Positions 1-25,520 of a stretch of DNA of 25,520 nucleotides are shown piece by piece (the stretch's first letter is position 1; each line of letters opens with the position of its first letter). Position numbers and translations under genes: made by a program. The stretch is from a virus. Its lineage: Duplodnaviria; Heunggongvirae; Uroviricota; Caudoviricetes. The notes below the pieces were generated by a model. That model saw only the letters and a program-made list of their open reading frames with translations. It had not been told where the DNA came from and ran no database searches. Location: IMG/VR virus record IMGVR_UViG_2695420380_000007, one strand, 5' to 3'.

Positions 1-25
1 ACCTCGGTTTACAGGAAACGGTAAA
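1..25. repeat. Left inverted repeat of tail-fibre inversion switch (putative crossover site, truncated by window start)
   Basis: acctcggtttacaggaaacggtaaa is the exact reverse complement of 3196-3220; it sits in-frame at the 5' edge of the alternate tail-fibre cassette. Confidence 0.75.
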
Positions 26-1028
26 CAAGGCTGGTAACGCCGTGCAAAAAAATGGCGATACGTTGTCCGGTGGACTTACTTTTGAAAACGACTCAATCCT
101 TGCCTGGATTCGAAATACTGACTGGGCAAAGATTGGGTTTAAAAATAATTCGGATGCAGACACCGATTCCTACATGTGGTTTGAAACAGGCAACAACGGC
201 AATGAATATTTCAAATGGAGACACCGCATCATTGGCACCCGGCCTAAAGACCTGATGAATCTTAAATGGAATGCTTTGTCTGTTCTTGTTGAAGCCCTTT
301 TCAGCAGTGAAGTGAAAATATCGACAGTCAATGCACTGAGGATATTTAATTCATCTTTTGGTGCCATTTTTCGTCGTTCTGAAGAATGCCTGCATATCAT
401 CCCTACACGAGAGAATGAAGGGGAAAATGGTAATATAGGGCCACTACGCCCCTTTACGCTTAATCTCAGAACTGGCCGGATAAGCATGGGGCATGGTCTT
501 GATGTTACAGGGGATATATTTGCAAACCGTTTTGCAATTAACAGTAGTACCGGCATGTGGATTCATATGCGTGACCAGAATGTTATTTTGGGACGTAATG
601 CGGTATCCACTGATGGTGCTCAGGCTTTGCTCCGTCAGGACCATGCCGACCGCAAATTTATGATTGGCGGTCTGGGAAATAAGCAATTTGGCATCTACAT
701 GATTAATAACTCAAGGACAGCCAATGGCACCGATGGTCAGGCGTACATGGATAATAACGGGAACTGGCTTTGCGGCTCGCAAGTTATTCCCGGCAACTAT
801 GGCAATTTTGATTCCAGATATGTGAAAGATGTTCGACTTGGTTCACAGCAATATTATGGAGTGAACAACTGGCAAACATGGAATTTTCAGTGCCCGTCAG
901 GCTATGTACTGACGGGGATTAACGTACAGGATACCGGAAAAAACTCTGCCGATAATATTGCAGGCGTTCATTACAGGCCAGTGCAAAAGTATATAAATGG
1001 CACTTGGTATAATGTGGCGAGTATTTAA
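1..1028 (+). CDS. Alternate tail-fibre C-terminal (receptor-binding) cassette, promoterless in this orientation; reading frame open to window start
   Basis: ORF 42-1028 (GTG at 42, frame open back to nt 3). N-terminal residues [11 protein letters not shown] match the H segment [12 protein letters not shown]; C-terminus [11 protein letters not shown] parallels [12 protein letters not shown]. Opposite strand to H. Confidence 0.7.
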
Positions 1029-1029
1029 T

Positions 1030-1557
1030 ATGATGCACTTAAAGAACATAAAAGCAGGTAATGCTAAAACAGTGGAGCAGTATGAGTTAACAAAGAAGCA
1101 CGGAGTCATCTGGCTTTACTCTGAGGACGGAAAAAACTGGTATGAGGAAGTGAAGAACTTTCAGCCAGACACAATAAAGATTGTTTACGATGCAAATAAT
1201 ATTATTGTCGCCATCACCAAAGATGCCTCCACGCTTAACCCTGAAGGTTATAGCGTCGTTGAGGTTCCTGATATTACAGCTAATCGTCGTGCTGATGATT
1301 CCGGTAAGTGGATGTTTAAGGACGGAGCTGTGGTTAAACGGATTTATACGGCTGACGAACAGCAACAACAGGCCGAATCACAAAAGGCCGCATTGCTTTC
1401 CGAAGCTGAATCAGTCATCCAGCCGCTGGAACGCGCTGTCAGGCTGAATATGGCGACGGACGAGGAACGCACACGACTGGAAGCATGGGAACGCTACAGT
1501 GTTCTGGTCAGCCGTGTGGATACGGCAAAGCCAGAATGGCCACAAAAGCCTGAGTAA
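1030..1557 (+). CDS. Tail-fibre assembly protein, alternate copy (G')
   Basis: ATGATG at 1030-1035 two nt after the cassette stop. [11 protein letters not shown]...[14 protein letters not shown]...[12 protein letters not shown] closely parallels the minus-strand G protein. Confidence 0.8.
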
Positions 1558-1562
1558 AAATT

Positions 1563-1582
1563 AAGGCCCGATATCGGGCCTT
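1563..1582. terminator. Bidirectional stem-loop between convergent tail-fibre assembly genes
   Basis: Perfect palindrome aaggcccgatatcgggcctt, flanked by aaaaatt on one side and gtttcatt on the other; sits between the stops at 1557 (plus) and 1586 (minus). Confidence 0.6.
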
Positions 1583-1585
1583 GTT

Positions 1586-2256
1586 TCATTCTGGTTGTTC
1601 GGGAAACGTTACTGGCAGGCTGGAGGTGTCTGTGGATTCGACCTTCTGCGCATAGAGCATCCACTCGGTTAATTTTTGTTTATTCTCGTCGGAAATAATG
1701 CCCAGCCGTAGCTGTGAGTCCCATAGCTGGGTTTTATCCCTGACGAGCTGTAGCAGGCTTTGCTTTTCATTTTCCGCTTGTTGCCTCTGCTCTTCCCCGG
1801 TATAAGTTCGCTTTATCACTACGCCATCTTTGAACATCCATTTACCTGAAATATCAGCCCGGCGATTTGCTGTAATATCAGGAACCTCAACGANNNNNNN
1901 NNNNNNNNNNNNNNNNNNNNNNNNNNNNNNNNNNNNNNNNNNNNNNNNNNNNNNNNNNNNNNNNNNNNNNNNNNNNNNNNNCCTGAAATATCAGCCCGGC
2001 GATTTGCTGTAATATCAGGAACCTCAACGACGCTTGCGCCTTCCGGATTAATTGCTGAAACATCCTTTTCAATACAAATAATAACGCCGTTGTGGTCATA
2101 GACCATTTTCAACGTATCAGGCTGAAAGTTCTTTTGTTCCTCATACCAGTTTTTCCCATCCTCTGTATAAAGCCATTTGATGTTAAATTGTTTCGTTAGC
2201 TGGTATTGCTCTTTTGTTTCAGGATTACCAGCAGAAATGTTTTTTAAGTGCATCAT
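1586..2256 (-). CDS. G: Tail-fibre assembly protein G (intact gene split by an assembly-gap artefact)
   Basis: ATG at 2254-2256 three nt after the H stop. The ORF track splits it (1819-2256 and 1586-1837) only because of N-run 1894-1981 plus a 49-bp duplicated flank; removing 137 nt restores one 177-codon frame. Confidence 0.8.
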
Positions 2257-2258
2257 CG

Positions 2259-4229
2259 TTAAATACTCCCCGCGTTATACCACGTCCCATTAATGCAATA
2301 CTGAATTGGCCTTGCCTGAGTTGTATCAATTAGTTCATCTCTGTTTGAGTTAACGGAACCGGTAACAACATAACCTGACCTGTCAGACCATCCGGGACCA
2401 TTCCATGTCTGAACAGATAACAGACCACCAAGGCGAATACCTGTAATAAACCTTGAGTTACATTCTGCCTGCGTATATGCACCAACATCTCCCGCAGAGG
2501 GTTTGCGGGTTGTGGTGTAAAACTCTGACCAGTCAGCTTCAAAGCCATAACCATCACGCGCTGAACGATAAAAAATACCGCCGTTCCTGTAATTCACGCG
2601 GAACTGTACAGCAGGGCAGCTCCCCGTATTCATATTGAAGTGGAGGATTAATGTCGATGCGCCACCAATGTTTGCGTTATAGACCCCGCTATTCCAGTTC
2701 CAGCCAACAGCTTTATCATTTCCGACAGTGCTTCCTGTTTGCCCTAAAGCAAATGCAGGTTGTTGATTTTTCGTGTTGTAGTCTCGTCGCCAGCCAGGAG
2801 CGTAAGCATCACCATGATTAATATAAGTGAATTGAGCGTTAGTAATTCCGCCACCGCTGGACGTGCTCGGCGTGGTAACGCGTATGGTCATTGCGCCGCG
2901 AGTGCCAATAACTTCCACCACAGCACCTGCAAGACAAATATTTCCGCAACCTGTATCTGTAATGACCTTATTATTTGCATAAGCCCATGAGCCTTTGCAC
3001 ATCCAGTAAGGATGGTTAAATGCTCCCTGACTCTCCAGCCACGAAATAAATTGCGCGGTTGTCCAGACCTGACTATCGCCACCAATATTCAGCCATGAGC
3101 TATATGCGCGGCAGGCACCAATATTTTTGGTGAAGGTATCTTTCCCCGGAATATCTGCGCCGTTCTGGTTTTTCTGTAATGCGCCAGAAGCCTGATTTAC
3201 CGTTTCCTGTAAACCGAGGTATTCGATAACGGCGGCAACGGTCGATTTCGCAAGAATATCCCGCCCGACTTTTGTCAGGGTTGCCAGGCTGGCGACATCA
3301 TTCCCCGTAAAATACGGAAACCTGTCTGCCGCAGTAGCAAGCCCCGCCAGCGCCGTCAGAGTGGCATCTTTCGGTTGCTTACCCGCAAGCGCGTTAGTCA
3401 TGGTGGTCGCAAAATTCGGGTCGTTGCCCAGCGCCGCCGCCAGCTCGTTCAGTGTGTTCAGTGCATCAGGCGAAGAGTCTACAAGTGCGGCAATCGCAGC
3501 CATAACGAAAGCCGTGCTTGCGATTTGGGTATTATTCGTTCCCTGTCGCGCAGTTGGTGTTGTTGGCGTTCCGGTCAGTGCCGGGCTGTTTAATGGGGCT
3601 TTCTTGTTCGTTTCATCCATTACTGCCTTAACGGCTTTTGGTGTCGCTGCCAGCGTTTCAGACGTGCTGTTGGTGGCGTTGCTGAGCTGGACAAGGCCTT
3701 TTGCGGTCAGCGAGGCGTCCGGGTGACGTCGTGACTGTTCATGCTCTTTCAGTTTGTCATCCACGTAATTCACTGTGGCCATCACCATGGTGTTATCCAC
3801 GGTAAGCGCCACAGTGGCAGTGCTGGATACGGTCAGAATGGTGCGAAATGTTTGTGCACGTCCGGATCCTTCGGCAACGGTTGGCTTGTAACTTTCGGCA
3901 GTATTGCCTACCGCGATCAAATCGCCGTGCTCATCAAACACACCAATTTCCCGGATCCAGAATCCGCCCGTTTCAGGAGGAATAACCAGCTCCGCAATAA
4001 TGTGGTTCTGATGTGTTGCGTCCAGGGTGACGCGATTAACGGTATGTCGCCACACCTCATGCACAAGACGGGTCTGCTTACTGTCTGGCGTGGGTAAAGT
4101 ACCGCCGCCGTCACCCACGGCCATATGTGTCAGGCGGACAGGTTTCCCATCTGGCGCGGTTGCCTGCGCTAATTTTTTTGCACCCGTATCGGTGATAATG
4201 GTTTTAAATTTTCGTGTTGTGGTACTCAT
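2259..4229 (-). CDS. H: Tail fibre protein H (constant N-terminal part plus the currently expressed variable C-terminal domain)
   Basis: 656-aa ORF, ATG at 4227-4229; position between I and G; Ala/Thr-rich repetitive middle; C-terminus shared with the alternate cassette. Confidence 0.85.
3196..3220. repeat. Right inverted repeat of tail-fibre inversion switch, inside H coding sequence
   Basis: tttaccgtttcctgtaaaccgaggt is the reverse complement of 1-25; encodes the LGLQETVN junction between constant and variable H parts. Confidence 0.75.
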
Positions 4230-4231
4230 GC

Positions 4232-4762
4232 TTAATCGTCCGGATAAATGGTAATGACTTCACCGTCGTAAGTTGCTGCTGCCGCGAAAATATCTCCCTG
4301 AATCTCCTGAATGATATTCAGCCCTGTCATGTGGCGGCTGACCGGGCGGGCATCAGCAATCAACCGCTCCATTTCCAGATACATTTCCTCCGTCACGCCA
4401 CTGTCCAGCGTGCCAACATCAATCTTGAATGTTCCGGGTTCGCCGTTGAACTCCCACCACTCAGACACGCGAATGAGGTATCCCAGCGGCTCAATGGCCC
4501 GTCGCAGGGCGCTGATGGTTCCTTTGTGTCGGTGTATCAGCCATGCATCACGAATCACCTGTCGCTTTGTCTCTTCCGGCCAGTTGCGATCCCAGCGGTC
4601 AACGGAAAACGCCCAGGCGAGATAAGGCAGCAGATGCACCGGGCAGGTGTCCGGCGACCACAGCGTGTTGAGGTCTGCCGGAATGTCTGTAATGCGTGTT
4701 CCGACGGCTTCGGCACAACGCATGAAATTGCTGGCTGATGGTGGTAACAGTGAATTACTCAT
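4232..4762 (-). CDS. I: Baseplate assembly protein I
   Basis: ATG at 4760-4762 gives 176 aa (P2 gpI length, from memory). The ORF track start is a GTG at 4795 that would overlap J by 41 nt. Position between J and H. Confidence 0.75.
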   Translation of the reverse strand: MSNSLLPPSASNFMRCAEAVGTRITDIPADLNTLWSPDTCPVHLLPYLAWAFSVDRWDRNWPEETKRQVIRDAWLIHRHKGTISALRRAIEPLGYLIRVSEWWEFNGEPGTFKIDVGTLDSGVTEEMYLEMERLIADARPVSRHMTGLNIIQEIQGDIFAAAATYDGEVITIYPDD

Positions 4763-5651
4763 TACGCCCACCTTCGCTGATGGTGAATGACTCACAGCGC
4801 GCCGCCTGTATGTCGCTGATGGCCATATTCTGTGTGGGTTCGATTATCTCCACGCGTTGCACACCGTGCACATGCAGTGCGGCAGCAATGGCGGACAACG
4901 CCACGTCCTGACCGATAAGCCCCTGCTCAGCCAGCCACTTCCTGAACGACGATTCAGCCGCAGCCAGAATAGGTTCGGATTCCGGACCGGGGTAAAAGTA
5001 CAGTTTTGCATTCAGCCGCCATGTCACGATTCTGGCACTCTGTACGGTCAGGCGGTCGGCCACCGGGCGGGTATCCTCTGCATTCAGAACGGCGCGAACG
5101 GTATTAAGCAACGCCTCCGTTGCTGTGCCGTCGCCCTCAGTGGACAGGATGGAAACCGTCACATTTGCCGGAGACGGACTGATGGCCCGCGCATCGCGCA
5201 CCAGACCGCTGGCGCTGCGGGCAAAATACTCGTATGCGCCTGACGGGCCTGCAACACTCAGGCCGTCATACGCCCGCTGCGCCCGCAGTCTCAGCGAGGT
5301 GTCGTTCTCCATCACCACGTCGGTGGTATCCGTTGCCGGAGTGATAACCAGGCGCTTTGTGTTCATATTGCCCGCGAGGTTGTCCAGGTCTGTTCCGGCG
5401 CTGTGGCTCAACATGCAGGCGCGTGCGGCCTCATTGACCCGCTGGCGTAACAGCATTTCACGAAACGACATGGTTTGAGCGATAACGTTCAGGGGTTCCG
5501 ATTCCAGTTCCAGTGCGGCGGAGACGACTTCACGCTGTTCGGCGGGATAAGCTGCAATCATCATGGCCTTTGTGTCAGCCAGAATTGCCTCAAAGTCAGG
5601 CTCCGCGATGATGGCGGGTTCCGGTAACTGGGAAAGGTCAACGGCAGGCAT
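4755..5651 (-). CDS. J: Baseplate assembly protein J
   Basis: 298-aa ORF, ATG at 5649-5651; size and position match P2 gpJ. Confidence 0.8.
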   Translation of the reverse strand: MPAVDLSQLPEPAIIAEPDFEAILADTKAMMIAAYPAEQREVVSAALELESEPLNVIAQTMSFREMLLRQRVNEAARACMLSHSAGTDLDNLAGNMNTKRLVITPATDTTDVVMENDTSLRLRAQRAYDGLSVAGPSGAYEYFARSASGLVRDARAISPSPANVTVSILSTEGDGTATEALLNTVRAVLNAEDTRPVADRLTVQSARIVTWRLNAKLYFYPGPESEPILAAAESSFRKWLAEQGLIGQDVALSAIAAALHVHGVQRVEIIEPTQNMAISDIQAARCESFTISEGGRNE

Positions 5652-5654
5652 GAT

Positions 5655-6005
5655 TTACTCCCTCAGCGTGATGGTTAATTCAACATTCTGCATGGTCTGC
5701 ATGACAGTGCCCGACAGCGTCACCCCGGCGTGGCCTCCTGCCTTCCAGACAACGTCGATGGCGTTCAGGGCAATGCGTGGTTCCCATCGTGTCAGTGCAA
5801 TCACGGTAGCACTCATGCATTGCAGACGCGTGGTGTTATTCATGGGTTCGTCAATCAAATCAGGCACAAGGCTGCCATATTCCCGTCGCATAACCCGGCT
5901 TGCCAGCGGGGTGGTCAGGATGTCCCTGACTGACTGTTTCAGGTGCGCCATATCGTTCAGGTTTCCCGTCCCGTCCGGGTTCATTCCTGTGTAGCGGGTT
6001 GTCAC
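5655..6005 (-). CDS. W: Baseplate assembly protein W (gp25-like)
   Basis: 116 aa; GTG start preceded by AGGAGG with 6-nt spacing; overlaps the V stop. Confidence 0.8.
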   Translation of the reverse strand: MTTRYTGMNPDGTGNLNDMAHLKQSVRDILTTPLASRVMRREYGSLVPDLIDEPMNNTTRLQCMSATVIALTRWEPRIALNAIDVVWKAGGHAGVTLSGTVMQTMQNVELTITLRE

Positions 6006-6583
6006 TGCGGGCCTCCTGTCGAATCGCTGCCACCTTTAACGCCACCGTGCTTATGCGTATGCACTGTGATGCCGTTTGAGGTGAAATCGCCGCCGCTGTG
6101 CGTGATATTGCCGCTCATCGTTCCCCCTTTTGTGACGTCAAGCGTCGCTGTTCTCAGAAGGTCTGTGCATTCCACGACAGGCGTGTTCAGTGTCACGCTG
6201 ATGGATGCCTGCAAAGTGGCCGTTTTCATGCCGCTTGCGCTCAGTGCGCCTGCGTCCGCGTCGTAGCGGAACACCGCGCCGTCCGGCGCGCTGACCACGA
6301 TTTCTTTCAGGCTTTTGCCGGGTGCCGGAATGGCATCACTCCACAGGCTGCCGATTATCATGGCGGTTTCCGGGTTGCCGCCGATGCAGGCAATTGCCAC
6401 CTGTTCGCCTGGTGATGGCGGAAACCACACGTTGAAGTCTCCCGCGCGCGTGGTGTTCCAGCGCAGCCAGCCTGTTTCCAGTTCGCCGCTGCGAACGCGC
6501 ACGCACCAGGATTCCTCATCAACTTCAGAGATGATCCCGGTGCGGATGATATTGCTCAGCAGTCGCATGAGTTCTGCGCTCAT
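6002..6583 (-). CDS. V: Baseplate spike protein V
   Basis: 193 aa, ATG at 6581-6583 in an ATGA overlap with the upstream gene; position upstream of W. Confidence 0.8.
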   Translation of the reverse strand: MSAELMRLLSNIIRTGIISEVDEESWCVRVRSGELETGWLRWNTTRAGDFNVWFPPSPGEQVAIACIGGNPETAMIIGSLWSDAIPAPGKSLKEIVVSAPDGAVFRYDADAGALSASGMKTATLQASISVTLNTPVVECTDLLRTATLDVTKGGTMSGNITHSGGDFTSNGITVHTHKHGGVKGGSDSTGGPQ

Positions 6584-7215: not shown

Positions 7216-7700
7216 CGCTTTCCCCCCACGTCACATCCTGGAATACATGCGACCAGTCGCCTTCGGAAGAGGGCAGGCGGGGTTTTGGCTCCGGCAGGTG
7301 TTCTGCCTGCGGTGTGCCCTGACTGCTGCGCGTGATGCGAACGCGTTCCCGCAGGGGGAGCGTAAACAGGAGATCGGCGCTGTCATCGTCATTGATAACG
7401 GCGGAAAATTTGATGTCCTGATTACGCTCCGGATTGAGCAACAACTGTGGCTGATTTTCGGATAACCACGCCAGCAGCGGCAGCGTGAGGTCGTCCAGCT
7501 CTCCGGCGTAATCCATGACAAACATCACTATCTGATANNNNNNNNNNNNNNNNNNNNNGATAGCGGTAAACAAACGATGGGGTTTCTCCGGTCGTTTCAA
7601 TGTTGCCGCTCTCCACGAAAATGGTGAATTTTTCCGGGTTGGCATGACACCACCGGCATGAACGGGTCATGGCTTCACGCAGGGAATCAGTTTTCAGCAT
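7208..7700 (-). CDS. R: Tail completion protein R (frame interrupted only by N-run 7538-7558)
   Basis: ATG at 7698-7700 (MLKTDSLREAM...); C-terminal part is ORF 7208-7645; the two join in frame if the N-run plus a 4-nt duplicated flank (gata) is removed. Confidence 0.7.
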
Positions 7701-8007
7701 GGTTGTTGTCCTCGTTGTTCAGTCNNNNNNNNNNNNNNNNNNNNNNNNNNNGTCGTTGCAGCCTGCGCTGTTCCAGTAATTCAATGGCCCGCTTATCGGC
7801 GTTACAGGTTTCCAGTGCGTCCATGAGGCTGTCGCTCCATATCCCGATGTTTCCCCATGATGGCGTCACCGGAAACGGCGGGGGAAGTACGGGGGCGGTC
7901 AGCCCTTCCGGGATGAAACGGAACGACGGCGGCGGCGCGGACGCGTTCTGCGTGCTGGTGCAACCGCTCAGTAAAGCGAGCGTCAGGAACAGCGCGGGCA
8001 CATGCAT
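7687..8007 (-). CDS. lysC: Outer-membrane spanin lipoprotein (Rz1/LysC-like), partly embedded in lysB in another frame
   Basis: ATG at 8005-8007 gives MHVPALFLTLALLSGC (lipobox LLSGC) followed by a proline-rich segment; starts inside the i-spanin gene and runs past its end. 3' end uncertain because of N-run 7725-7751. Confidence 0.6.
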   Translation of the reverse strand: MHVPALFLTLALLSGCTSTQNASAPPPSFRFIPEGLTAPVLPPPFPVTPSWGNIGIWSDSLMDALETCNADKRAIELLEQRRLQRXXXXXXXXXXLNNEDNNHAEN

Positions 8008-9333: not shown

Positions 9334-9966
9334 TCAGAGATGGCCCAGCTCACATCGCGCCACAAATCCGATGTCTGTATATCCAGTGCGTCCGCNNNNN
9401 NNNNNNNNNNNNNNNNNNNNNNNNNNNNGGCGGTCGCCCTTGTCCGTTGTGTCCGCATCGCGGTAACGCTCCAGAATCAGGGCGCGTGTGGCGGTATAAA
9501 CAGCATTGCGCCAGTGCCAGAGATTGACGCTTTCTCCGTTAATTACAGGTGCCGGAACATCGGCCAGCNNNNNNNNNNNNNNNNNNNNNNNNNNNNNNNN
9601 NNNNNNNNNNNNNNNNNNNNNNNNNNNNNNNNNNNNNNNNNNNNNNNNNNNNNNNNNNNNNNNNNNNNNNNNNNNNNNNNNNNNNNNNNNNNNNNNNNNN
9701 NNNNNNNNNNNNNNNNNNNNNNNNNNNNNNNNNNNNNNNNNNNNNNNNNNNNNNNNNNNNNNNNNNNNNNNNNNNNNNNNNNNNNNNNNNNNNNNNNNNN
9801 NNNNNNNNNNNNNNNNNNNNNNNNNNNNNNNNNNNNNNNNNNNNNNNNNNNNNNNNNNNNNNNNNNNNNNNNNNNNNNNNNNNNNNNNNNNNNNNNNNNN
9901 NNNNNNNNNNNNNNNNNNNNNNNNNNNGTGCGCGGTGTAAACGGTCACGGAGCCAAACCGGAACAC
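9334..9966 (-). CDS. L: Head completion/stabilisation protein L (largely hidden by N-runs 9397-9428 and 9569-9927)
   Basis: Position between M and X; the visible middle segment 9429-9568 encodes a clean peptide on the minus strand (LADVPAPVINGESVNLWHWRNAVYTATRALILERYRD...). Boundaries approximate. Confidence 0.5.
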   Translation of the reverse strand: MFRFGSVTVYTAHXXXXXXXXXXXXXXXXXXXXXXXXXXXXXXXXXXXXXXXXXXXXXXXXXXXXXXXXXXXXXXXXXXXXXXXXXXXXXXXXXXXXXXXXXXXXXXXXXXXXXXXXXXXXXXXXXXXXXXXXLADVPAPVINGESVNLWHWRNAVYTATRALILERYRDADTTDKGDRXXXXXXXXXXXXGRTGYTDIGFVARCELGHL

Positions 9967-12787: not shown

Positions 12788-14766
12788 ATGATGGCAAAGC
12801 GTAACAGGCTGATACAAAGGGCTTTTGTTGTAAGAAAACGGCCAGANNNNNNNNNNNNNNNNNNNNNNNNNNNNNNNNNNNNNNNNNNNNNNNNNNNNNN
12901 NNNNNNNNNNNNNNNNNNNNNNNNNNNNNNNNNNNNNNNNNNNNNNNNNNNNNNNNNNNNNNNNNNNNNNNNNNNNNNNNNNNNNNNNNNNNNNNNNNNN
13001 NNNNNNNNNNNNNNNNNNNNNNNNNNNNNNNNNNNNNNNNNNNNNNNNNNNNNNNNNNNNNNNNNNNNNNNNNNNNNNNNNNNNNNNNNNNNNNNNNNNN
13101 NNNNNNNNNNNNNNNNNNNNNNNNNNNNNNNNNNNNNNNNNNNNNNNNNNNNNNNNNNNNNNNNNNNNNNNNNNNNNNNNNNNNNNNNNNNNNNNNNNNN
13201 NNNNNNNNNNNNNNNNNNNNNNNNNNNNNNNNNNNNNNNNNNNNNNNNNNNNNNNNNNNNNNNNNNNNNNNNNNNNNNNNNNNNNNNNNNNNNGATGCGA
13301 CGGCCACAGGAAAGAAAGGCCGGGCGAAAAAACTCAAAAATCATTTCACGCCGGAACAGATTGCCGCACTGCGGGAAAAAATCATCAGCAGGCTGGAGTG
13401 GCATCAGCGGGGCTGGTTTGACTCCCTGACGCTTTGCAGGGAAGCCGGGATACGTAACAGGATGATCCTGAAATCCCGACAGATTGGGGCGACCTGGTAT
13501 TTTGCACAGGAAGCACTGCTGATGGCGCTGCGTGACGATGTGGCACAACCTTACCAGCGTAACCAGATTTTTTTGTCTGCGTCGCGTCGTCAGGCGTTCC
13601 AGTTTAAAAGCATTATTCAGAAGGCCGCGGCTGAAGTCGATGTGGAGCTGAAAGGGGGCGATAAAATCATCCTCTCCAACGGCGCAGAGATGCATTTTCT
13701 CGGCACTTCTGCTGCGACGGCGCAATCTTACACGGGCAATTTTTATTTTGATGAATTTTTCTGGGTCAGTCGCTTTGCTGAACTGCGCAAGGTGGCTGGC
13801 GCTATGGCAACCCTCAGCGGACTGCGGCGCACCTGCTTCTCCACGCCATCCACCGAAACGCACGAGGCATACGCCTACTGGAACGGCGACCGCTGGAACG
13901 AGAAAAAGGCCGCGCATAAACGCCAGCGTTTTTCTGTGGACTGGAAAACGCTGCATAACGGGCTTATCTGCCCTGACCGGACGTGGCGGCAAATTGTCAC
14001 GCTGGAAGATGTGGTTAATCACGGCTGGAAACACACCGATATTGATGAAATTCGTGATGAAAACACCGAAGACGAGTTCCGCAATCTCTATATGTGTGAG
14101 TTTGTCCGCGAAGGGGAATCGGCATTTAACCTGAATATCCTGATTGGCTGCGGTGTTGACGGATACGACGACTGGAAAGACTGGAAACCCTTTGCCCCCC
14201 GCCCGATGGGGAATCGTCCGGTATGGATTGGGTATGACGCAAACGGCAGCAGTGGTAACGGCGACAGCGGCGCTGTGTCCGTGGTGGTTCCTCCGGCTGT
14301 TCCTGGTGGTCGTTTCAGAACGGTGGAGACGCGACGCGTTCAGGGGCTGGAATTTGAAGAGCAGGCCAGAGTTATTGAAGAGTTCACGTATCGCTACAAC
14401 GTGGAACACATCGGCATTGATGCGACGGGCGGGCACGGGGATGCCGTCTATCAGATAGTGAAACGGTTTTTTCCCGCCGCCATCCCTTACACCTTCACGC
14501 TGTCATCAAAACGGTCGCTGGTACTGAAAATGCTGCAAATAATGCGTGCCGGGCGGTGGGAATACGATCGCGCCGAACGCGAGCTGGTTGCGGCCTTTAA
14601 CGCCGTGCGTAAGGTGAAAACACCGGGCGGTTTTATCACTTACGAAACGGACCGCGCGAGGGGGATCAGCCACGGCGACCTTGCGTGGGCAACCATGCTT
14701 GCTGTCATTAACGAACCGATTGGCGGCGAAGGAGAAAACGAGCGTTTCACGGTTATGGAGTTCTGA
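12788..14766 (+). CDS. P: Terminase large (ATPase) subunit P; 5' end uncertain because of N-run 12847-13293
   Basis: Unambiguous coding from 13294 (KSRQIGATWYFAQEALL... to stop at 14766). If the N-run is an artefact with a 2-nt overlap (ga), the frame joins ATGATG at 12788. ATGA overlap with Q. Confidence 0.7.
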
Positions 14767-16503: not shown

Positions 16504-16743
16504 CTATTTACTCTTCTCGGCCCTCAAAATCATACGAGAACCATCATCCAGCTCCCAATTAATTTCACCGCCTTCTGCCATGACTAGATGCCAAACGAGT
16601 TGAGCGGCCTCGTTGGTTACATCGCGACCGCGATCATTTCCTACGCGGCGTTTTGTTCCGTCTCCTAAGTCACGCATTTTTGCCAATACGATGGTTTTTG
16701 ATAGCGGTGAAAAACCAAGCTGTAGTCGTGCTGAATTACTCAC
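16504..16743 (-). CDS. Hypothetical protein (79 aa)
   Basis: GTG start preceded by AGGGGG with 6-nt spacing; overlaps the stop of the upstream 174-aa gene (GTGA), suggesting translational coupling. Confidence 0.5.
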   Translation of the reverse strand: MSNSARLQLGFSPLSKTIVLAKMRDLGDGTKRRVGNDRGRDVTNEAAQLVWHLVMAEGGEINWELDDGSRMILRAEKSK

Positions 16744-17264
16744 TGGCTGCCCCCTTTGTACTGTGTTAACTCTTCCTGCTCCTGCATCATGCGATTGACC
16801 TGAACGCGTGTGCGTCGAACGGCAAAATTAAATTGAAACATGAGCCGGAACATTTCTGATGCTTCCGTGTGAGCATCACGGATAGGTGACAGGCGGTACA
16901 GTTCTGCCTCCGTAGCTTGTTGAATCAATGACAGATCAAATTGAAGTGCGGGTCTGGTACATTTTGCACATCTGGCAGCAAGCTCCGGTATTAGTCTCTT
17001 AACGAAGGTGTTTTGCACCGCTTTGTTGATTTGTGTCTGCATCCAAATCGCAAATTTCAGCGAACGCATAAGTTTGATAGCCTCGGGCAGCGGCAGATAG
17101 ATCATGCTGGTAGATTTGGGTGGTTGGTGAACCATCTTCACGGATACGCGATTTCGCAGCGTTCGGAAAATCGTGTTCCCAACAACAGCTTCTACGGATA
17201 CAGGACAGGGAGCCAGACCAGCCCGCAGTGCTTCTTTCATTAGCATGTATTCGTATTTTTTCAT
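16740..17264 (-). CDS. Hypothetical protein (174 aa)
   Basis: ATG 17262-17264 preceded by GAGGAA; 60 nt downstream of parR; no family recognised from the sequence. Confidence 0.55.
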   Translation of the reverse strand: MKKYEYMLMKEALRAGLAPCPVSVEAVVGNTIFRTLRNRVSVKMVHQPPKSTSMIYLPLPEAIKLMRSLKFAIWMQTQINKAVQNTFVKRLIPELAARCAKCTRPALQFDLSLIQQATEAELYRLSPIRDAHTEASEMFRLMFQFNFAVRRTRVQVNRMMQEQEELTQYKGGSQ

Positions 17265-17324
17265 CGTGTTTTCCTCGTGCGGGGCGACAGTGCACCCCGA
17301 TAAAATTAAAAGCCGTCAAATTCG

Positions 17325-17636
17325 TCATTCAGGAAATAATGCCCGGATATTCCCTGCTATCTGACTGGTTATCTGTGCGGTTGGTACTGGCTGTGGCACG
17401 GGGCGTTCTGTCCTGGTTTGTGTCACCGATAACGCCTCATCGTCAGCCCATGCAGCCAGTCGGTAAGCCTCTGCTGGATTCATTTTCAGAAGTGCCAGCC
17501 CGGCCAGAAAAGCCACGCGTTGGCCGCTTTTGCGGGCTTCTGGTGTAAGGCTGCCCAGCCAGGCGCATGCTTCGCTTTCGTTCTTGACGGCCGCAGGCTT
17601 CAGATAGAAACTTATCCGTCTGGTTGGTGTCGTCAT
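17325..17636 (-). CDS. parR: ParR-like centromere-binding protein (ribbon-helix-helix partition adaptor)
   Basis: ATG 17634-17636 preceded by AAGGAG, 4 nt after the parM stop; 103 aa; RRISFYLKP...EARKSGQRVAFLAGLAL resembles R1 ParR/StbB (from memory). The longer track ORF 17325-17771 overlaps parM. Confidence 0.65.
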   Translation of the reverse strand: MTTPTRRISFYLKPAAVKNESEACAWLGSLTPEARKSGQRVAFLAGLALLKMNPAEAYRLAAWADDEALSVTQTRTERPVPQPVPTAQITSQIAGNIRALFPE

Positions 17637-17640
17637 TGGT

Positions 17641-18600
17641 TTACTCCTTGTCCATTGCGTACAGCCCATTAACCAGAGCAAACTGTGGCACCCCGTCCGC
17701 GATGAAAGTCGCATTAACTCCGCAGGCTTCGCGGATAGCGGGTGCCACAATCTCCGCCCCTCCACCGACAACCATCACCCGCCCGTAACCCGAAAAACCC
17801 GCCAGCGCGCGGATCACGCGTTGTTTCAGTGTTTCTTCCTTTTCACGAATAACCGCCATCAGGCTGGCGTAATGCGCGTCATTGTGGATGTGCTGGCGCA
17901 GCCAGGCTTCATCATGGCGATGTTCGATAATGGTATTGGCGATGTGGTGACTGGTGCGCATACCGTTAGTGGCCATCACCGACAGTACGGCATCGGCCAT
18001 CAGAGAAACGCCTACGTGTGGATCGCAAAACACCTGGCTGATACCTGCCAGTTGCCCCTGAACCTTTGCCACATCCAGCGTGGTTCCGCCCAAATCCACA
18101 ATCAGCAGGGATTCAAACGGACTCATGTCAGCCAGTGCCTTAAAGCCAGCCGGAATGGATTCAGGCATAACCCGCACGTTACGGATAGTGAATGCTTCGC
18201 CGTTCTGGTACTCCACCGGGCGCATAACGTTCGCTTTTTTGCGGTTGATGTTGGCCATGTCCGGCTGTGCGTTTGTGTCGAAATACTCGCTCAGTGGCAG
18301 GGTGACAACCACATCCACCTCCTGTGGCGTGATGCCTGATTTGACCAGCGCGTGATGAATGGCAATGACATTTACATCGCTGTACTGGTATTGCGTGTCG
18401 GTTGTCTGGACAAAGCGATCGCTGACCGGATCAAAACCATAGCGCACGCCATCAAGCATGTAGTTCGCGGGCTGCATGCCACCGAACGGCGCAGACCATT
18501 CCGACTTGAAGCTGTTCGGGCTGATGGCGTTGCGGCGTTCGCCGTTCTCAGTCCATGCCAGCTTGATGTTGGTGGAGCCGTCGTCGATACAAATTTTCAT
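17641..18600 (-). CDS. parM: ParM/StbA actin-like segregation ATPase
   Basis: 319 aa, ATG 18598-18600 preceded by AAGGA; shared motifs with R1 ParM recalled from memory: IDDGSTNIKL, ISPNSFK, YSDVNV, NRKKAN, VMPESIPAG, LLIVDLGGTTLD, VMVVGGGAE. Confidence 0.85.
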   Translation of the reverse strand: MKICIDDGSTNIKLAWTENGERRNAISPNSFKSEWSAPFGGMQPANYMLDGVRYGFDPVSDRFVQTTDTQYQYSDVNVIAIHHALVKSGITPQEVDVVVTLPLSEYFDTNAQPDMANINRKKANVMRPVEYQNGEAFTIRNVRVMPESIPAGFKALADMSPFESLLIVDLGGTTLDVAKVQGQLAGISQVFCDPHVGVSLMADAVLSVMATNGMRTSHHIANTIIEHRHDEAWLRQHIHNDAHYASLMAVIREKEETLKQRVIRALAGFSGYGRVMVVGGGAEIVAPAIREACGVNATFIADGVPQFALVNGLYAMDKE

Positions 18601-18743: not shown

Positions 18744-21558
18744 TTTCCACTGGTCAGGCCACCCCGCAGCAGGTCTGCTTTGCGGCGGGCGCGTTCAGTG
18801 GTTTCACTGATTCTCTGTGCGTGCTCTGCGTCGCGGATGGCGCGCAGCATGTCAGAAAGCACGGTAACGGGTGTTTTCATGGTGTTCTGGTCCTGCTGAA
18901 GTGTGGATGCCAGGCGTGCGGCGGCTTCAGGGTCTGATGCCCCCAGCTGTGTCAGATAGCTGGCGACCGGGTTATGGCGGATCTCCGTGCTGCTTACGCC
19001 ATGATTACGGCTCAGGCGCTGCCAGAGCTGCGTGATTCGGCTGTCCGGGCGGGTATCCGGTTTGCGTACAATTTCAAATCCCTGCGGTGCAATGATGCTG
19101 CCGTCAACGTACAGACTGCCGCCCCGTAACAGGTGCTGCATCTGTTGTTCACCGATATGCAGGCCGAGAGATTCAGCAGACTCCCGCCATTCTTTAGCGA
19201 GTAATTCGTGGTTATCAGGCAAAGGCCGCTGCTGTTTGCGGCTCTGTGTCCAGCTCTGCATTTCATCACTGCTGTTTTTTGCCTGTTTGTCACGAAGCGA
19301 ACGCATCAGCGCCCGGCGTTCGTGCCGTTTCAGTGAGCGCATCCATTCATCCACATCAACGCCGTCAGGGAGCTGCGGCCACGGTGCTGGCCGTTCTTCC
19401 GGCTGTTCTGTCCCGTTGTTGTCCGTTTCCTGTACACGGGGACAGTTATTGCCACGAGTCCAAGGGGCGGCAGGGCCGCCCTGAAGGTCAAAACCATTTT
19501 CGCGGGCGCTGTCTTCCGCTTCCGGTTTGCGTCTTACCAGCTTCCAGTTATCCGGATGCGTGCACACACGGNNNNNNNNNNNNNNNNNNNNNNNNNNNNN
19601 NNNNNNNNNNNNNNNNNNNNNNNNNNNNNNNNNNNNNNNNNNNNNAAATCTGTACGCTCTGTTCGCCGTAATCGTTCAGCTCATCGGCGAGGTCGTAGGC
19701 GGTGCGAATCAGGTAGTCTTTGCGTGGAACAAGTACGCCGCCCTGTTTCTCTATGTAGGTGNNNNNNNNNNNNNNNNNNNNNNNNNNNNNNNNNNNNNNN
19801 NNNNNNNNNNNNNNNNNNNNNNNNNNNNNNNNNNNNNNNNNNNNNNNNNNNNNNNNNNNNNNNNNNNNNNNNNNNNNNNNNNNNNNNNNNNNNNNNNNNN
19901 NNNNNNNNNNNNNNNNNNNNNNNNNNNNNNNNNNNNNNNNNNNNNNNNNNNNNNNNNNNNNNNNNNNNNNNNNNNNNNNNNNNNNNNNNNNNNNNNNNNN
20001 NNNNNNNNNNNNNNNNNNNNNNNNNNNNNNNNTCGATGCCATCCACGGCGCGGCTGTCCAGGTTTTTCCCGATGTAGGTGGCGATGTAGCTGGTTGGCGT
20101 GCCTTTTGAGCCGTCTACATACTCCGCCTTAAAGCGCGGAGTTATGTCATCGCCCAGCTCGTGACGATCTTCCTGAATGGCAATATCGCGGGTGTGGGAC
20201 ACAATGGTGTCGATTTCTTCCGGATGAGCAAAGACCATCATATGCCAGTGCACGGTGCCGTCATGGTGAGGCTCCGCCGTGCGGATGCCATACCAGCGCA
20301 GGCCGTCGCGGTTCAGTTTTTTGCGGACCGTCGCAAAAAACGTGTTAACCAGGTAATCGCTGGAGTCGCGCATTGTGGCCCCGTTCCATTTGGGATTCGG
20401 ATGACCGTTCTCCGTTGTGGCGTGGTATTTTGACGGGCAGGTGACAGTCAGAAACACCGCTTTGTCGCCACGGGCTTCGGCCAGAAGTTCCAGCCCCTTC
20501 ATGGTGGCCATCATTTCTGCCTTACGGTGAACCGGGTTACTTACTCCCGCGTAATACACCGTCTCGAGATCAATCGTGAACCCGTCTTCATTTTCCAGCA
20601 TGAAACTTTTCAGGAAATCGCGTGTTTTCTCGCGCTGTGCGCGAAACTCGCTTAACGCGTCCTGGCTCAGATAGGGCGATGTTTTTCTGGAAACCAGACA
20701 GGCGGCGCGAAGTTGTTCTTCTCTCCACTCGCAACGTAACAGCCACAGTTTGCGTTTCCACCATTCCGCACAGGTCAGGCGAAGGATTGCGCCCGGCAGC
20801 AGTTCTGTGTCCGGTTCGTGCCTCCGGTCTTTGTCTGTTGTCAGTGCGTCATAATGCGGAGGCATGGCGTGTAAGTGTAACGCCATGCGGGCCAGCATCT
20901 GATACGCCTTCAGCGTTACATCCATGGTCAGCTCGCCATCAGTCGCGCCAAAACCATCGCAGAGTTTTTCGAAGGTGCTGCTGAACATCGCCGCCGTCAT
21001 GGTGGCCAGCGTCTGTATCTGGTGTTTGTTGAGTTGCGGCAGGTAAAGCAAATCGTCCAGGCGTTCACGTCCGGCAAGGGAGCGATAACCCGGTGTCAGC
21101 CAGTGTCCGTCAGTGCGATCCAGACGTTCGAATATTTTGCGCAGGGTTCCGCGTGCATAGCGTTCCGCCTGCCAGCTCTTTTTGCCTTTCCGGCGATCGG
21201 CTTCCTGTTTTTTGCGCAGGAAGGAGAGGTGGCGAATAAGCGGATCGCGCAGATAGGACGGCAGCAGGCGCAGCGAGGCCATGGCTTCATCCACCGCGCC
21301 GCGTGCCTGTTTTCTGGCGTCTCCTGCCAGTGTGATGGTTTTGTCCTGTTTTTCCTGTGCGTCCAGGCTTTTATTAATCAGGTTGCCCAGTGGCGTGGCG
21401 GAGAACGCCGCATCAGCCATTTCCTGGCGGCGCTCGTTCTCTGCCCGGTGGGCATCCAGCCAGGAGGAAAGCGCGGATTCAGGAGCGGGGATCCCCGTTC
21501 CTTCACGCCCCACTGCGTGGCGCGGTTGTTGCCAGTCCCTGATGTACTCTGCCGTCAT
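18677..21558 (-). CDS. A: Replication initiation endonuclease A (rolling-circle HUH type), interrupted by N-runs 19572-19645 and 19762-20032
   Basis: N-terminal ORF 19681-21558 (ATG 21556-21558) has the HUH motif HWHMMVF. Segment 19646-19761 encodes a clean peptide that joins the N-terminal frame if the 271-N run is removed. Assignment of ORF 18677-19567 as the C-terminus is inferred. Confidence 0.75.
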
Positions 21559-22603: not shown

Positions 22604-22720
22604 TTATTCTTCAGTGAAAAAGCGTTCAATCTTTTTTACTGAATTAATAATTCGCATAATCCCAATGGCGCAGACCACCGAAATAATCANNNNNNNNNNN
22701 NNNNNNNNNNNNNAAGCCAT
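22604..22720 (-). CDS. Possible small hydrophobic protein; interrupted by N-run 22690-22713
   Basis: Hydrophobic C-terminal peptide IISVVCAIGIMRIINSV; start ambiguous. Confidence 0.2.
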   Translation of the reverse strand: MAXXXXXXXXXIISVVCAIGIMRIINSVKKIERFFTEE

Positions 22721-22792: not shown

Positions 22793-22999
22793 TCAGCTCG
22801 GAAAGTTCGTTAAGTGCATCCAGATCATCAGCGTAAAAAGNNNNNNNNNNNNNNNGTAAAAAGCCACGTCATACAGACTTCGGATTGCTCTGGTCAATGA
22901 GTCACGGGCCGCACGTTCAGCATGAGCGCCTGATGCACTTAAGCGAAAATAAAAACGCTCAAGTGCTTTGTTAATGAGAGTTTTATATTCTTTGCCCAT
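22793..22999 (-). CDS. Hypothetical early protein; interrupted by N-run 22841-22855
   Basis: ATG 22997-22999 (GTG at 23002 also possible) preceded by AAGGG; the N-run is flanked by an 8-nt duplication (gtaaaaag). Confidence 0.35.
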   Translation of the reverse strand: MGKEYKTLINKALERFYFRLSASGAHAERAARDSLTRAIRSLYDVAFYXXXXXLFTLMIWMHLTNFPS

Positions 23000-25437: not shown

Positions 25438-25520
25438 NNNNNNNNNNNNNNNNNNNNNNNNNNNNNNNNNNNNNNNNNNNNNNNNNNNNNNNNNNNNNNN
25501 NNNNNNNNNNNNCATAAAGA

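Follow-up and report, generated by a model that had tools for sequence, protein, structure and literature searches.

The stretch of viral DNA analysed here (25,520 nucleotides of IMG/VR record IMGVR_UViG_2695420380_000007, referred to below as the window) opens on two tail-fibre modules that face each other. On the minus strand, the tail-fibre gene H reads as an open frame of 656 aa (2259..4229). It consists of a constant N-terminal part of 336 codons of the P2 gpH type (3221..4229; PF12571, 2.4e-54; PF03406, 1.6e-20; 77% identity to H of phage P88) and an expressed variable C-terminal cassette (2259..3220), which is homologous to S', the G(-) cassette of D108, with a protein identity of 98.4% to D108 S' and 99% to the silent cassette of P88. 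On the plus strand lies a silent alternative C-terminal cassette of 341 codons (3..1028), without a start codon of its own, which shares 98.2% identity with the silent cassette of SfMu and 80% with the C-terminus that P88 expresses; the GTG at position 42 is not a genuine start. When aligned, the two cassettes are alike only in their first ~60 and last ~75 residues. An NCBIfam search returned no model naming H, the silent cassette or the adjoining gene U.

Each cassette is followed by its own tail-fibre assembly gene, as the first-pass annotation had stated, and PF02413 is matched by both. The chaperone paired with the silent cassette is U (1030..1557, plus strand, 175 aa; Caudo_TAP PF02413, 2.5e-37; phrog_136), which is 93% identical to U of D108, SfMu and P7, and that of the expressed cassette is U' (1586..2256, minus strand, 177 aa after removal of an artefact), which is 100% identical to U' of SfMu and 97% to those of D108 and P7; U and U' are 57-58% identical to each other's counterparts in D108, SfMu, P7 and P88. 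The two sets converge on a bidirectional intrinsic-terminator hairpin, AAGGCCCGATATCGGGCCTT (1563..1582), also anticipated in that annotation and recovered by a terminator scan of both strands, with folding energies of -22.7 and -19.0 kcal/mol (z = -5.6 and -4.5). At the equivalent place, the annotation of D108 has rho-independent terminators on both strands.

The reading frame of U' is broken at 1894..2030 by an assembly artefact with no biological content, namely an 88-N gap (1894-1981), after which the 49-mer at 1845-1893 recurs (1982-2030), and relatives read straight across without the duplication. Deleting these 137 nt restores an intact 534-nt gene of 177 aa, and U' was therefore rejected as a pseudogene. 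The window as a whole is a gapped scaffold whose 11 N-runs have unreliable lengths; masked biology was also rejected as their source, since these lengths disagree with relatives (for example, runs of 21 and 27 N where relatives are missing 0 bases), which marks them as scaffold gaps.

Upstream of H are the P2-type baseplate genes I, J, W and V (4232..6583, minus strand), identified by Tail_P2_I, Baseplate_J, GPW_gp25, Phage_base_V and Phage_spike and by the annotation of relatives. On the P2 model, these genes would form a late operon whose promoter reads into the facing cassette. Pfam and collinear E. coli prophages together place P2-type late genes and proteins across the window (V, W, J, I and H; R and S; lysis; capsid; terminase; portal; replication endonuclease; integrase), and phage P88 matches 4300-25520 at 96.4% nucleotide identity over 75%. 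The switch is thus carried by a P88-like prophage (Xuanwuvirus, P2 family, Peduoviridae). In P88, the C-terminus of the fibre determines host range, and the paper reporting this makes no mention of an invertase or of inversion (PMC5285337).

Crossover sites and the invertase

A repeat search of the window finds a perfect 25-bp inverted repeat with arms at 1..25 and 3196..3220, which reaches 52 nt imperfectly (81%). At up to three mismatches, the two arms are the only copies in the whole window, and none such arose in 100 shuffles of it, the chance expectation being none; the repeat described in the first-pass annotation is accordingly real. A third crossover site, as in the shufflon-like prophage of E2348/69, was sought at the same threshold in the window, and none was found. 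Both copies encode LGLQETVN, and the repeat lies in frame within H and at the 5' edge of the plus-strand open frame 3-1028. The fixed N-terminal part of the fibre fuses in frame with either of the two divergent C-terminal cassettes, a trait of the Mu G type: H is open as read, inversion in silico gives an open H of 678 aa, and this predicted protein equals the annotated H residue for residue in four assemblies of the opposite orientation. These matches bear out the proposal of an in-frame repeat with an oppositely oriented alternate C-terminus, and the silent cassette is expressed only once inversion has made it the C-terminus of the 678-aa H.

The repeat arms overlap two inverted 26-bp sites with imperfect 12-bp half-sites and a 2-bp core, the layout of the Din family (Gin/Cin/Pin/Hin). 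The right site is whole (3204..3229; TTCCTGTAAACC GA GGTATTCGATAA) and lines up with the crossover annotated at cixR in P7. The left site is truncated by the window edge (1..17), coordinate 1 being 3 nt left of its crossover dinucleotide, and comprises 3 nt of the outer half-site (ACC, 1-3), the core TC (4-5) and the inner half-site GGTTTACAGGAA (6-17). The core dinucleotide is the same in both sites, as TC at 4-5 and as GA (TC on the opposite strand) at 3216-3217, and a base-by-base alignment matches both sites to the inverted repeat annotated in D108 and to the crossover dinucleotide annotated at P7 cix. The left site is complete in L004, a public contig with 100% identity to window 1-6000 that runs on leftwards; there it reads TTATCTAAAACC TC GGTTTACAGGAA and is identical at 26/26 positions to the D108 site adjoining gin. 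These alignments confirm that the window opens inside the left crossover site, and they move the limits of the segment, which had been put at 26-3195, to exchange points at the core dinucleotides 4-5 and 3216-3217.

The invertase itself lies outside the window. A serine invertase had been predicted just left of coordinate 1, to be sought upstream as a Gin/Hin/Pin/Cin recombinase of about 190 aa, and in L004 a 195-aa protein with Resolvase and HTH_7 domains does start 63 nt left of that coordinate. Compared with the Mu Gin chains of known structure, 4m6f and 3uj3, it scores E = 4e-101, differs from 4m6f by one substitution in residues 1-103 and keeps the catalytic-serine motif VRVSTNDQ. Its identity is 85% to D108 Gin and 74.6% to Cin, and it matches the Hin DNA-binding domain at E = 2e-12. 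Its divergence from Mu Gin is concentrated in the last ~70 residues (from about 125), which include the DNA-binding domain. NCBIfam gives matches to generic serine-recombinase models only, all below their cut-offs. The same protein adjoins the segment in E. coli MSI001 and FDAARGOS_943. As in Mu and SfMu, transcription of the invertase gene leads away from the segment, unlike that of cin in P1 and P7, which leads towards it. The first 100 nt of the invertase gene in L004 are identical to gin of D108 and SfMu and span the part of P7 cin to which an enhancer is assigned (nt 19-86 of the gene); by homology, a Fis-bound enhancer in the 5' part of the gene probably assists inversion.

Orientation among relatives

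Ten related loci divide evenly, with five in each orientation. The clearest pair is formed by L004, which has the window orientation, and L008, which has the opposite one and is Shigella sonnei 53G (HE616528.1; strain name from PMC5447701): the 3083-bp segment is identical, as are 4474 nt of flank on both sides, and inversion is the sole difference. The swap of flanks is placed within the 25-bp repeat. Among complete E. coli genomes, the window-type junction occurs in 126 and the predicted inverted junction in 321 (one at 100.0% identity), and genomes with matches hold a median of 2 such places. Both orientations, which the first-pass annotation had suggested looking for, are therefore present across public assemblies, the window itself showing one of them. 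A search of public species-representative genomes for the first 62 nt of the window and for the 25-bp repeat gave no match.

In six of the ten related loci, the outer half of the left site contains a 1264-bp IS3-family element, inserted one base from the core, so that AACC is all that remains of the original 12-bp half-site. The element shifts the invertase gene and enhancer 1.26 kb further from the segment. Both orientations are nevertheless present even among the copies that carry it, and two loci, L006 and L010, which have the common left-site element and a second identical element inside the segment, are in opposite orientations and otherwise virtually identical. This might suggest that a Gin-type switch still inverts after an insertion sequence has landed in its left crossover site, a tentative proposal, slightly on the doubtful side of even, that draws on the relatives and not on the window. 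On the invertase side, a contig ending in ...TTATCTAAA would carry the intact site, and one ending in ...GTACACCTCAA the end of the insertion sequence. The window could come from a copy bearing the insertion sequence, which would offer one reason for the contig to stop at the site.

Relation to known switches and the proposed mechanism

Judged from sequence, the segment is homologous, and not merely analogous, to the G and C segments of Mu, D108, SfMu and P7, with nucleotide identities of 95.7% to SfMu, 91.7% to D108 and 91.6% to the annotated P7 C-segment (68% of the query). The assignment to the architecture of Mu gin/G, P1 cin/C and e14 pin/P made in the first-pass annotation is upheld by this homology to Mu-type G/C segments, by the sites and by the invertase. 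With the Gin/G systems of Mu, D108 and SfMu, the locus shares the order of two S cassettes and two U chaperones, the two-way terminator, matching 34-bp inverted repeats, the side on which the invertase lies and its outward transcription, with cassettes 95-98% and invertase 85% identical. However, those are transposable Mu-like phages, whereas the present phage is P2-like and has a constant fibre part of the P2 gpH type; the similarity to SfMu ends about 16 nt past the right repeat, a repeat motif of 35-40 aa is all of the constant part that resembles the Mu-type S protein, and P2-type tail genes adjoin the switch in place of the Mu-type neighbours com and mom.

The Cin/C systems of P1 and P7 share the mechanism and homologous cassettes and chaperones (U 93%, U' 97%), but the direction of cin in P7 is towards the segment, with cixL overlapping its 3' end, and the C segment of P1/P7 is longer (about 4 kb), has a core of TT rather than TC and differs in the inner half-site. 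P88 shares the order H, U, U', silent cassette and DNA invertase, although its record holds the segment in the opposite orientation and its constant part is longer (424 aa aligned versus 336). The e14 element, which carries Pin/P, is a defective lambdoid element, and Hin of Salmonella flips a promoter and not a coding cassette; both systems have the same recombinase family, site type and mechanism as the locus described here. Inversion in e14 likewise fuses alternative C-termini to a tail fibre, and in E. coli E2348/69 sequencing has revealed inversion in P2-like prophages (PMC4272514). One prophage of E2348/69 has three repeats and four isomers, whereas the window has only two sites.

Taken together, these features lead us to read the locus as a site-specific inversion switch of the Gin/Cin/Pin family and of the Mu G-segment type in a P88-like prophage of the P2 family, a reading to which we give a probability of roughly 93%, and the switch is almost certainly active. 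In the mechanism that we propose, a segment of ~3.07 kb (window 6-3215 minus the 137-nt artefact) would be flipped between the two inverted 26-bp sites with the same core, through pairing of the sites by the Gin-like invertase and strand exchange at the cores. Because the constant part of H and the upstream late operon stay fixed, transcription and translation would enter whichever cassette faces them. In the window orientation, this would give the 656-aa H with a tip of the D108 S' type and chaperone U', and in the inverted orientation the 678-aa H with an SfMu-type tip and chaperone U, the central two-way terminator presumably keeping transcripts from running into the silent pair in antisense. 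A phage population mixed for two receptor specificities is the expected result.

The strongest of the alternatives is that the switch in the source strain is a fossil, an inherited architecture frozen by loss of, or damage to, the invertase or the left site, for example by the insertion sequence. The window does stop 3 nt left of the core, leaving the outer half-site and the invertase beyond its edge, the 1264-bp element occupies the left site in those six relatives, and the authors of the SfMu report suspected that their own copy does not invert (PMC4406740). Yet in L004, the contig identical to window 1-6000, the site and the invertase are intact, both orientations occur even where the element is present, and the matching E. 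coli genomes typically hold two such places. Invertases of the Gin/Cin/Pin/Hin family complement one another in trans, which also counts against a frozen state. We consider a fossil unlikely, at odds of about one in ten or so.

It is far less probable that general homologous recombination of the RecA type across the inverted repeat, and not the invertase, made the two orientations. The exchange can be located only to within 25 bp of identity, so the data alone do not identify the enzyme. However, 25 bp lies at the lower limit for RecA-dependent exchange, and the inverted repeats formed by U and U', which are longer and only 75-78% complementary, show no sign of use. A Gin orthologue adjoins the site, the sites line up with gix and cix base by base, and it is textbook knowledge that Gin and Cin invert the homologous G and C segments. 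The idea that the inverted repeat at the window edge is itself an assembly artefact, such as a chimeric join or a misassembled scaffold, draws on the 11 N-runs and the duplicated 49-mer and is refuted by finished genomes and an independent draft contig that read the same base for base through both sites.

The preferred reading, an invertase-driven switch, describes a textbook host-range device in a phage group in which it is already annotated, and since inversion in P2-like E. coli prophages has been experimentally shown before, the switch is already known; it carries little weight as a discovery. Its use lies partly in annotation: such prophages have two legitimate forms of the tail fibre, here of 656 and 678 aa, the silent cassette is routinely labelled "hypothetical protein" with a false start codon, and draft assemblies tend to break or mis-join at such crossover sites. 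Apparent inversion after arrival of the insertion sequence is the only mildly new point here; if the adjacent invertase did invert the copies that bear it, the need for the outer half-site in vivo would be much looser than the consensus suggests. The window also shows clearly the gin-G module travelling as one unit among Mu-like, P1-like and P2-like phages.

Architecture of the tail-fiber segment

The tail-fiber gene H (2259-4229, minus strand) is a 656-codon open reading frame made up of a constant part, Sc (3221-4229), and an expressed cassette, Sv (2259-3220), and it contains the right arm of an inverted repeat whose left arm opens the oppositely oriented silent cassette, Sv', a plus-strand frame spanning bases 3-1028, with its stop codon at 1026-1028. 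Window 1-25 (ACCTCGGTTTACAGGAAACGGTAAA) and 3196-3220 are perfect reverse complements of each other, and weaker similarity of the two arms extends up to 52 nt (81% complementary). At up to three mismatches, the 25-bp repeat has two copies only in the window, and none of 100 dinucleotide-preserving shuffles of the window gave any copy. Both arms encode LGLQETVN, in agreement with the first-pass annotation, which had placed a perfect repeat in frame within H and at the 5' edge of the opposed cassette.

The same annotation had described a promoterless alternate cassette, an assembly gene after each cassette, and two gene sets converging on a bidirectional hairpin, and all of these features were recovered. 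A scan of the 5' edge of the silent cassette for a promoter-like site returned none. The chaperone genes U (1030-1557, plus strand), paired with the silent cassette, and U' (1586-2256, minus strand), paired with the expressed one, both match the tail-fiber assembly protein family PF02413 (Caudo_TAP). Between them lies the hairpin AAGGCCCGATATCGGGCCTT (1563-1582), which a terminator scan scored on both strands and which folds much better than shuffles on each (z = -5.6 and -4.5). Aligning the two cassettes, as had been proposed, revealed similarity confined to the first ~60 and last ~75 residues. The silent cassette is a gene fragment without promoter or start, despite public annotations that treat the equivalent of window 63-1028 as an independent gene starting at an internal codon, named "hypothetical protein" or "tail fiber protein" (related loci L001, 6063-7025, and L003, 1752-2717).

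Domain matches assign the fiber repeat PF03406 and the P2 gpH N-terminal domain (PF12571) to the constant part of H, and they place genes I, J, W, and V of P2 type upstream of it. The length of H differs among relatives, being 656 aa in the window, 700 aa in E. coli MSI001, and 764 aa in P88 (other orientation), and the constant part varies; the MSI001 alignment overlaps itself at window 3625-3705, pointing to the gain or loss of a repeat unit in the fiber shaft.

On sequence homology, the window is ~25 kb of a P2-family prophage with a Mu-type gin-G module built in. The Mu gin/G-type architecture claimed earlier is borne out by nucleotide identity of the segment to those of SfMu (95.7% over window 1-3236), P88 (93.1%), D108 (91.7%), and P7 (91.6%, annotated C-segment). 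The expressed cassette has 98.4% protein identity to the D108 S' variable part, and the silent cassette is 98.2% identical to that of SfMu, 80% to the expressed end of P88 H, and 64% to D108 S. Similarity to SfMu ends ~16 nt past the right repeat. Outside the segment, the window is 96.4% identical to phage P88 (Xuanwuvirus, Peduoviridae) over three quarters of its length, and it holds lysis, capsid, terminase, portal, replication, and integrase genes. The G segments of SfMu and D108 are closest to the module and P88 is closest to the carrier. In the portal-to-replication interval (16740-18600), the collinear E. coli prophage L017 has ParM and a plasmid-partition-family protein, ParM is also listed in P88 and further relatives, and one relative, strain 6883, has an S8 peptidase and an AAA ATPase instead; the interval may be a site of variable cargo in this phage group.

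The possibility that U' is broken was rejected, as its apparent disruption consists of an 88-N run (1894-1981) and, directly after it, a 49-mer (1982-2030) that exactly duplicates the one before the run (1845-1893). Deleting these 137 spurious nucleotides yields a 534-nt gene with a 177-aa product 100% identical to SfMu U', and relatives continue through this point without a break. Ten further N-runs occur at 7538-7558, 7725-7751, 9396-9428, 9569-9927, 12847-13293, 19572-19645, 19762-20032, 22690-22713, 22841-22855, and 25438-25512. The first four are reached by alignment to the E. coli relative L001, which has no missing bases at the 21-N and 27-N runs; because the run lengths disagree with the relative, they are scaffold gaps. 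The window is therefore a fragmented scaffold, with capsid, terminase, and replication among the genes interrupted by gaps.

Crossover sites, invertase, and the start of the window

The right crossover site (3204-3229) reads TTCCTGTAAACC GA GGTATTCGATAA, or TTATCGAATACC TC GGTTTACAGGAA from outside inwards. The left site is complete in L004 (GCA_013902205.1), a locus 100% identical to window 1-6000 whose position 4972 is window position 1; it reads TTATCTAAAACC TC GGTTTACAGGAA and is identical at 26/26 positions to the site within the annotated D108 repeat beside gin. The outer nine bases match at 7/9, and with these added the repeat becomes the 34-bp inverted repeat known from G segments of the Mu type (PMC4406740). 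The TC core, the same in both sites, aligns with the annotated crossover dinucleotides of cixL and cixR in phage P7, so the window starts 3 nt left of the crossover dinucleotide, inside the left site as first proposed. The exchange points lie at the core dinucleotides, 4-5 and 3216-3217, rather than at 26 and 3195 as originally placed.

The window contains no invertase gene. Searching for exact copies of U returned many assemblies, and in L004 the invertase expected left of coordinate 1 is indeed present: a 195-aa Gin orthologue with Resolvase and HTH_7 domains (4321-4908, opposite strand), starting 63 nt left of the window and transcribed away from it. It matches solved Mu Gin chains (4m6f, E = 4e-101; 3uj3, E = 2e-100), residues 1-103 differ from 4m6f by one substitution, and the catalytic-serine motif VRVSTNDQ is kept. 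From ~residue 125 the protein diverges from these chains over its last ~70 residues, the DNA-binding domain included. D108 Gin shares 85% identity with it and P7 Cin 74.6%. Over its first 100 nt, the gene is identical to D108 and SfMu gin, and this stretch aligns with the annotated P7 cin recombinational enhancer. Two complete E. coli genomes have the same protein (WP_000905057.1) beside the segment. The invertase and its putative enhancer are seen only beyond the window, in identical copies.

The two alternative left flanks (...TTATCTAAA/ACC and ...TTATCGAAT/ACC) become identical at window base 1, the first position that they share. This is suggestive of a contig end at an assembly-graph branch, arising from reads with both orientations or from a second cassette copy elsewhere, but the right junction (3220/3221) was assembled through unbroken. 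A repeated insertion sequence (IS) next to the site, of the kind present in six relatives, is also suggested as a possible cause; in those relatives, the IS end would fall one base further left than the window start.

Both isomers occur in nature

Joining the reverse complement of 3221-4229 to window 1-1028 in silico gives an open 678-codon gene. Its product equals, at every residue, the called protein of three loci (L005, L008, and L011) and the annotated protein of E. coli FDAARGOS_943. Both orientations, which the first-pass annotation had predicted, were found between assemblies: of the ten loci that U retrieved, five (L004, L006, L007, L012, and L013) are arranged as in the window, with an H of 656 aa, and five (L005, L008, L009, L010, and L011) the opposite way, with an H of 678 aa. 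Between L004 and L008 (the latter from Shigella sonnei 53G, HE616528.1, a strain named in PMC5447701), the 3083-bp segment and each 4474-nt flank are identical in sequence; their sole difference is the inversion, with flanks swapped within the 25-bp repeat. Of 5426 complete E. coli genomes, 126 cover the Sc-Sv junction of the window and 321 the predicted Sc-Sv' junction, one of these at 100.0% identity.

Six loci (L005, L006, L009, L010, L012, and L013), found in both orientations, carry a 1264-bp IS3-family element that interrupts the outer half of the left site a single base away from the core (TTATCTAAAAC/IS/AACC TC GG) and has a 3-bp target duplication, AAC. In L006 it occupies 3707-4970, immediately left of the equivalent of window position 1. 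L006 and L010 have in common this element and a second identical insertion in the segment (duplication GTG, window 1714-1716). Their segments are identical (4350/4350), as is one flank (3207/3207), and the other flank has one mismatch and one gap. Because their orientations are opposite, inversion appears, on the simplest reading, to have continued after the left site was damaged by the IS.

The arrangement is already annotated in P88, and the switch is already known, inversion having been detected by sequencing of clonal cultures in other P2-like prophages, those of E. coli E2348/69 (PMC4272514). In P88, swapping fiber residues near the C-terminus altered host range (PMC5285337).

Proposed operation of the switch

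The structure belongs to the Gin/Cin/Pin/Hin inversion systems, each testable defining feature having been found. The Mu, P1, and Hin systems are the source of the invertase, Fis/enhancer, and cassette-expression steps proposed here. With inverted sites of the same core, alternative in-frame fusions, cognate chaperones, a two-way terminator, and an adjacent Gin orthologue in identical copies, invertase dimers would bind both sites and assemble with Fis on the enhancer, the active-site serine would cut the 2-bp cores, and the subunits would rotate before the ends are rejoined. The late operon through V-W-J-I-H would then express the cassette and chaperone facing it, and the other pair would stay silent because it is without a start codon, constant part, and promoter. 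By analogy with these systems, the two fibers would recognize different receptors.
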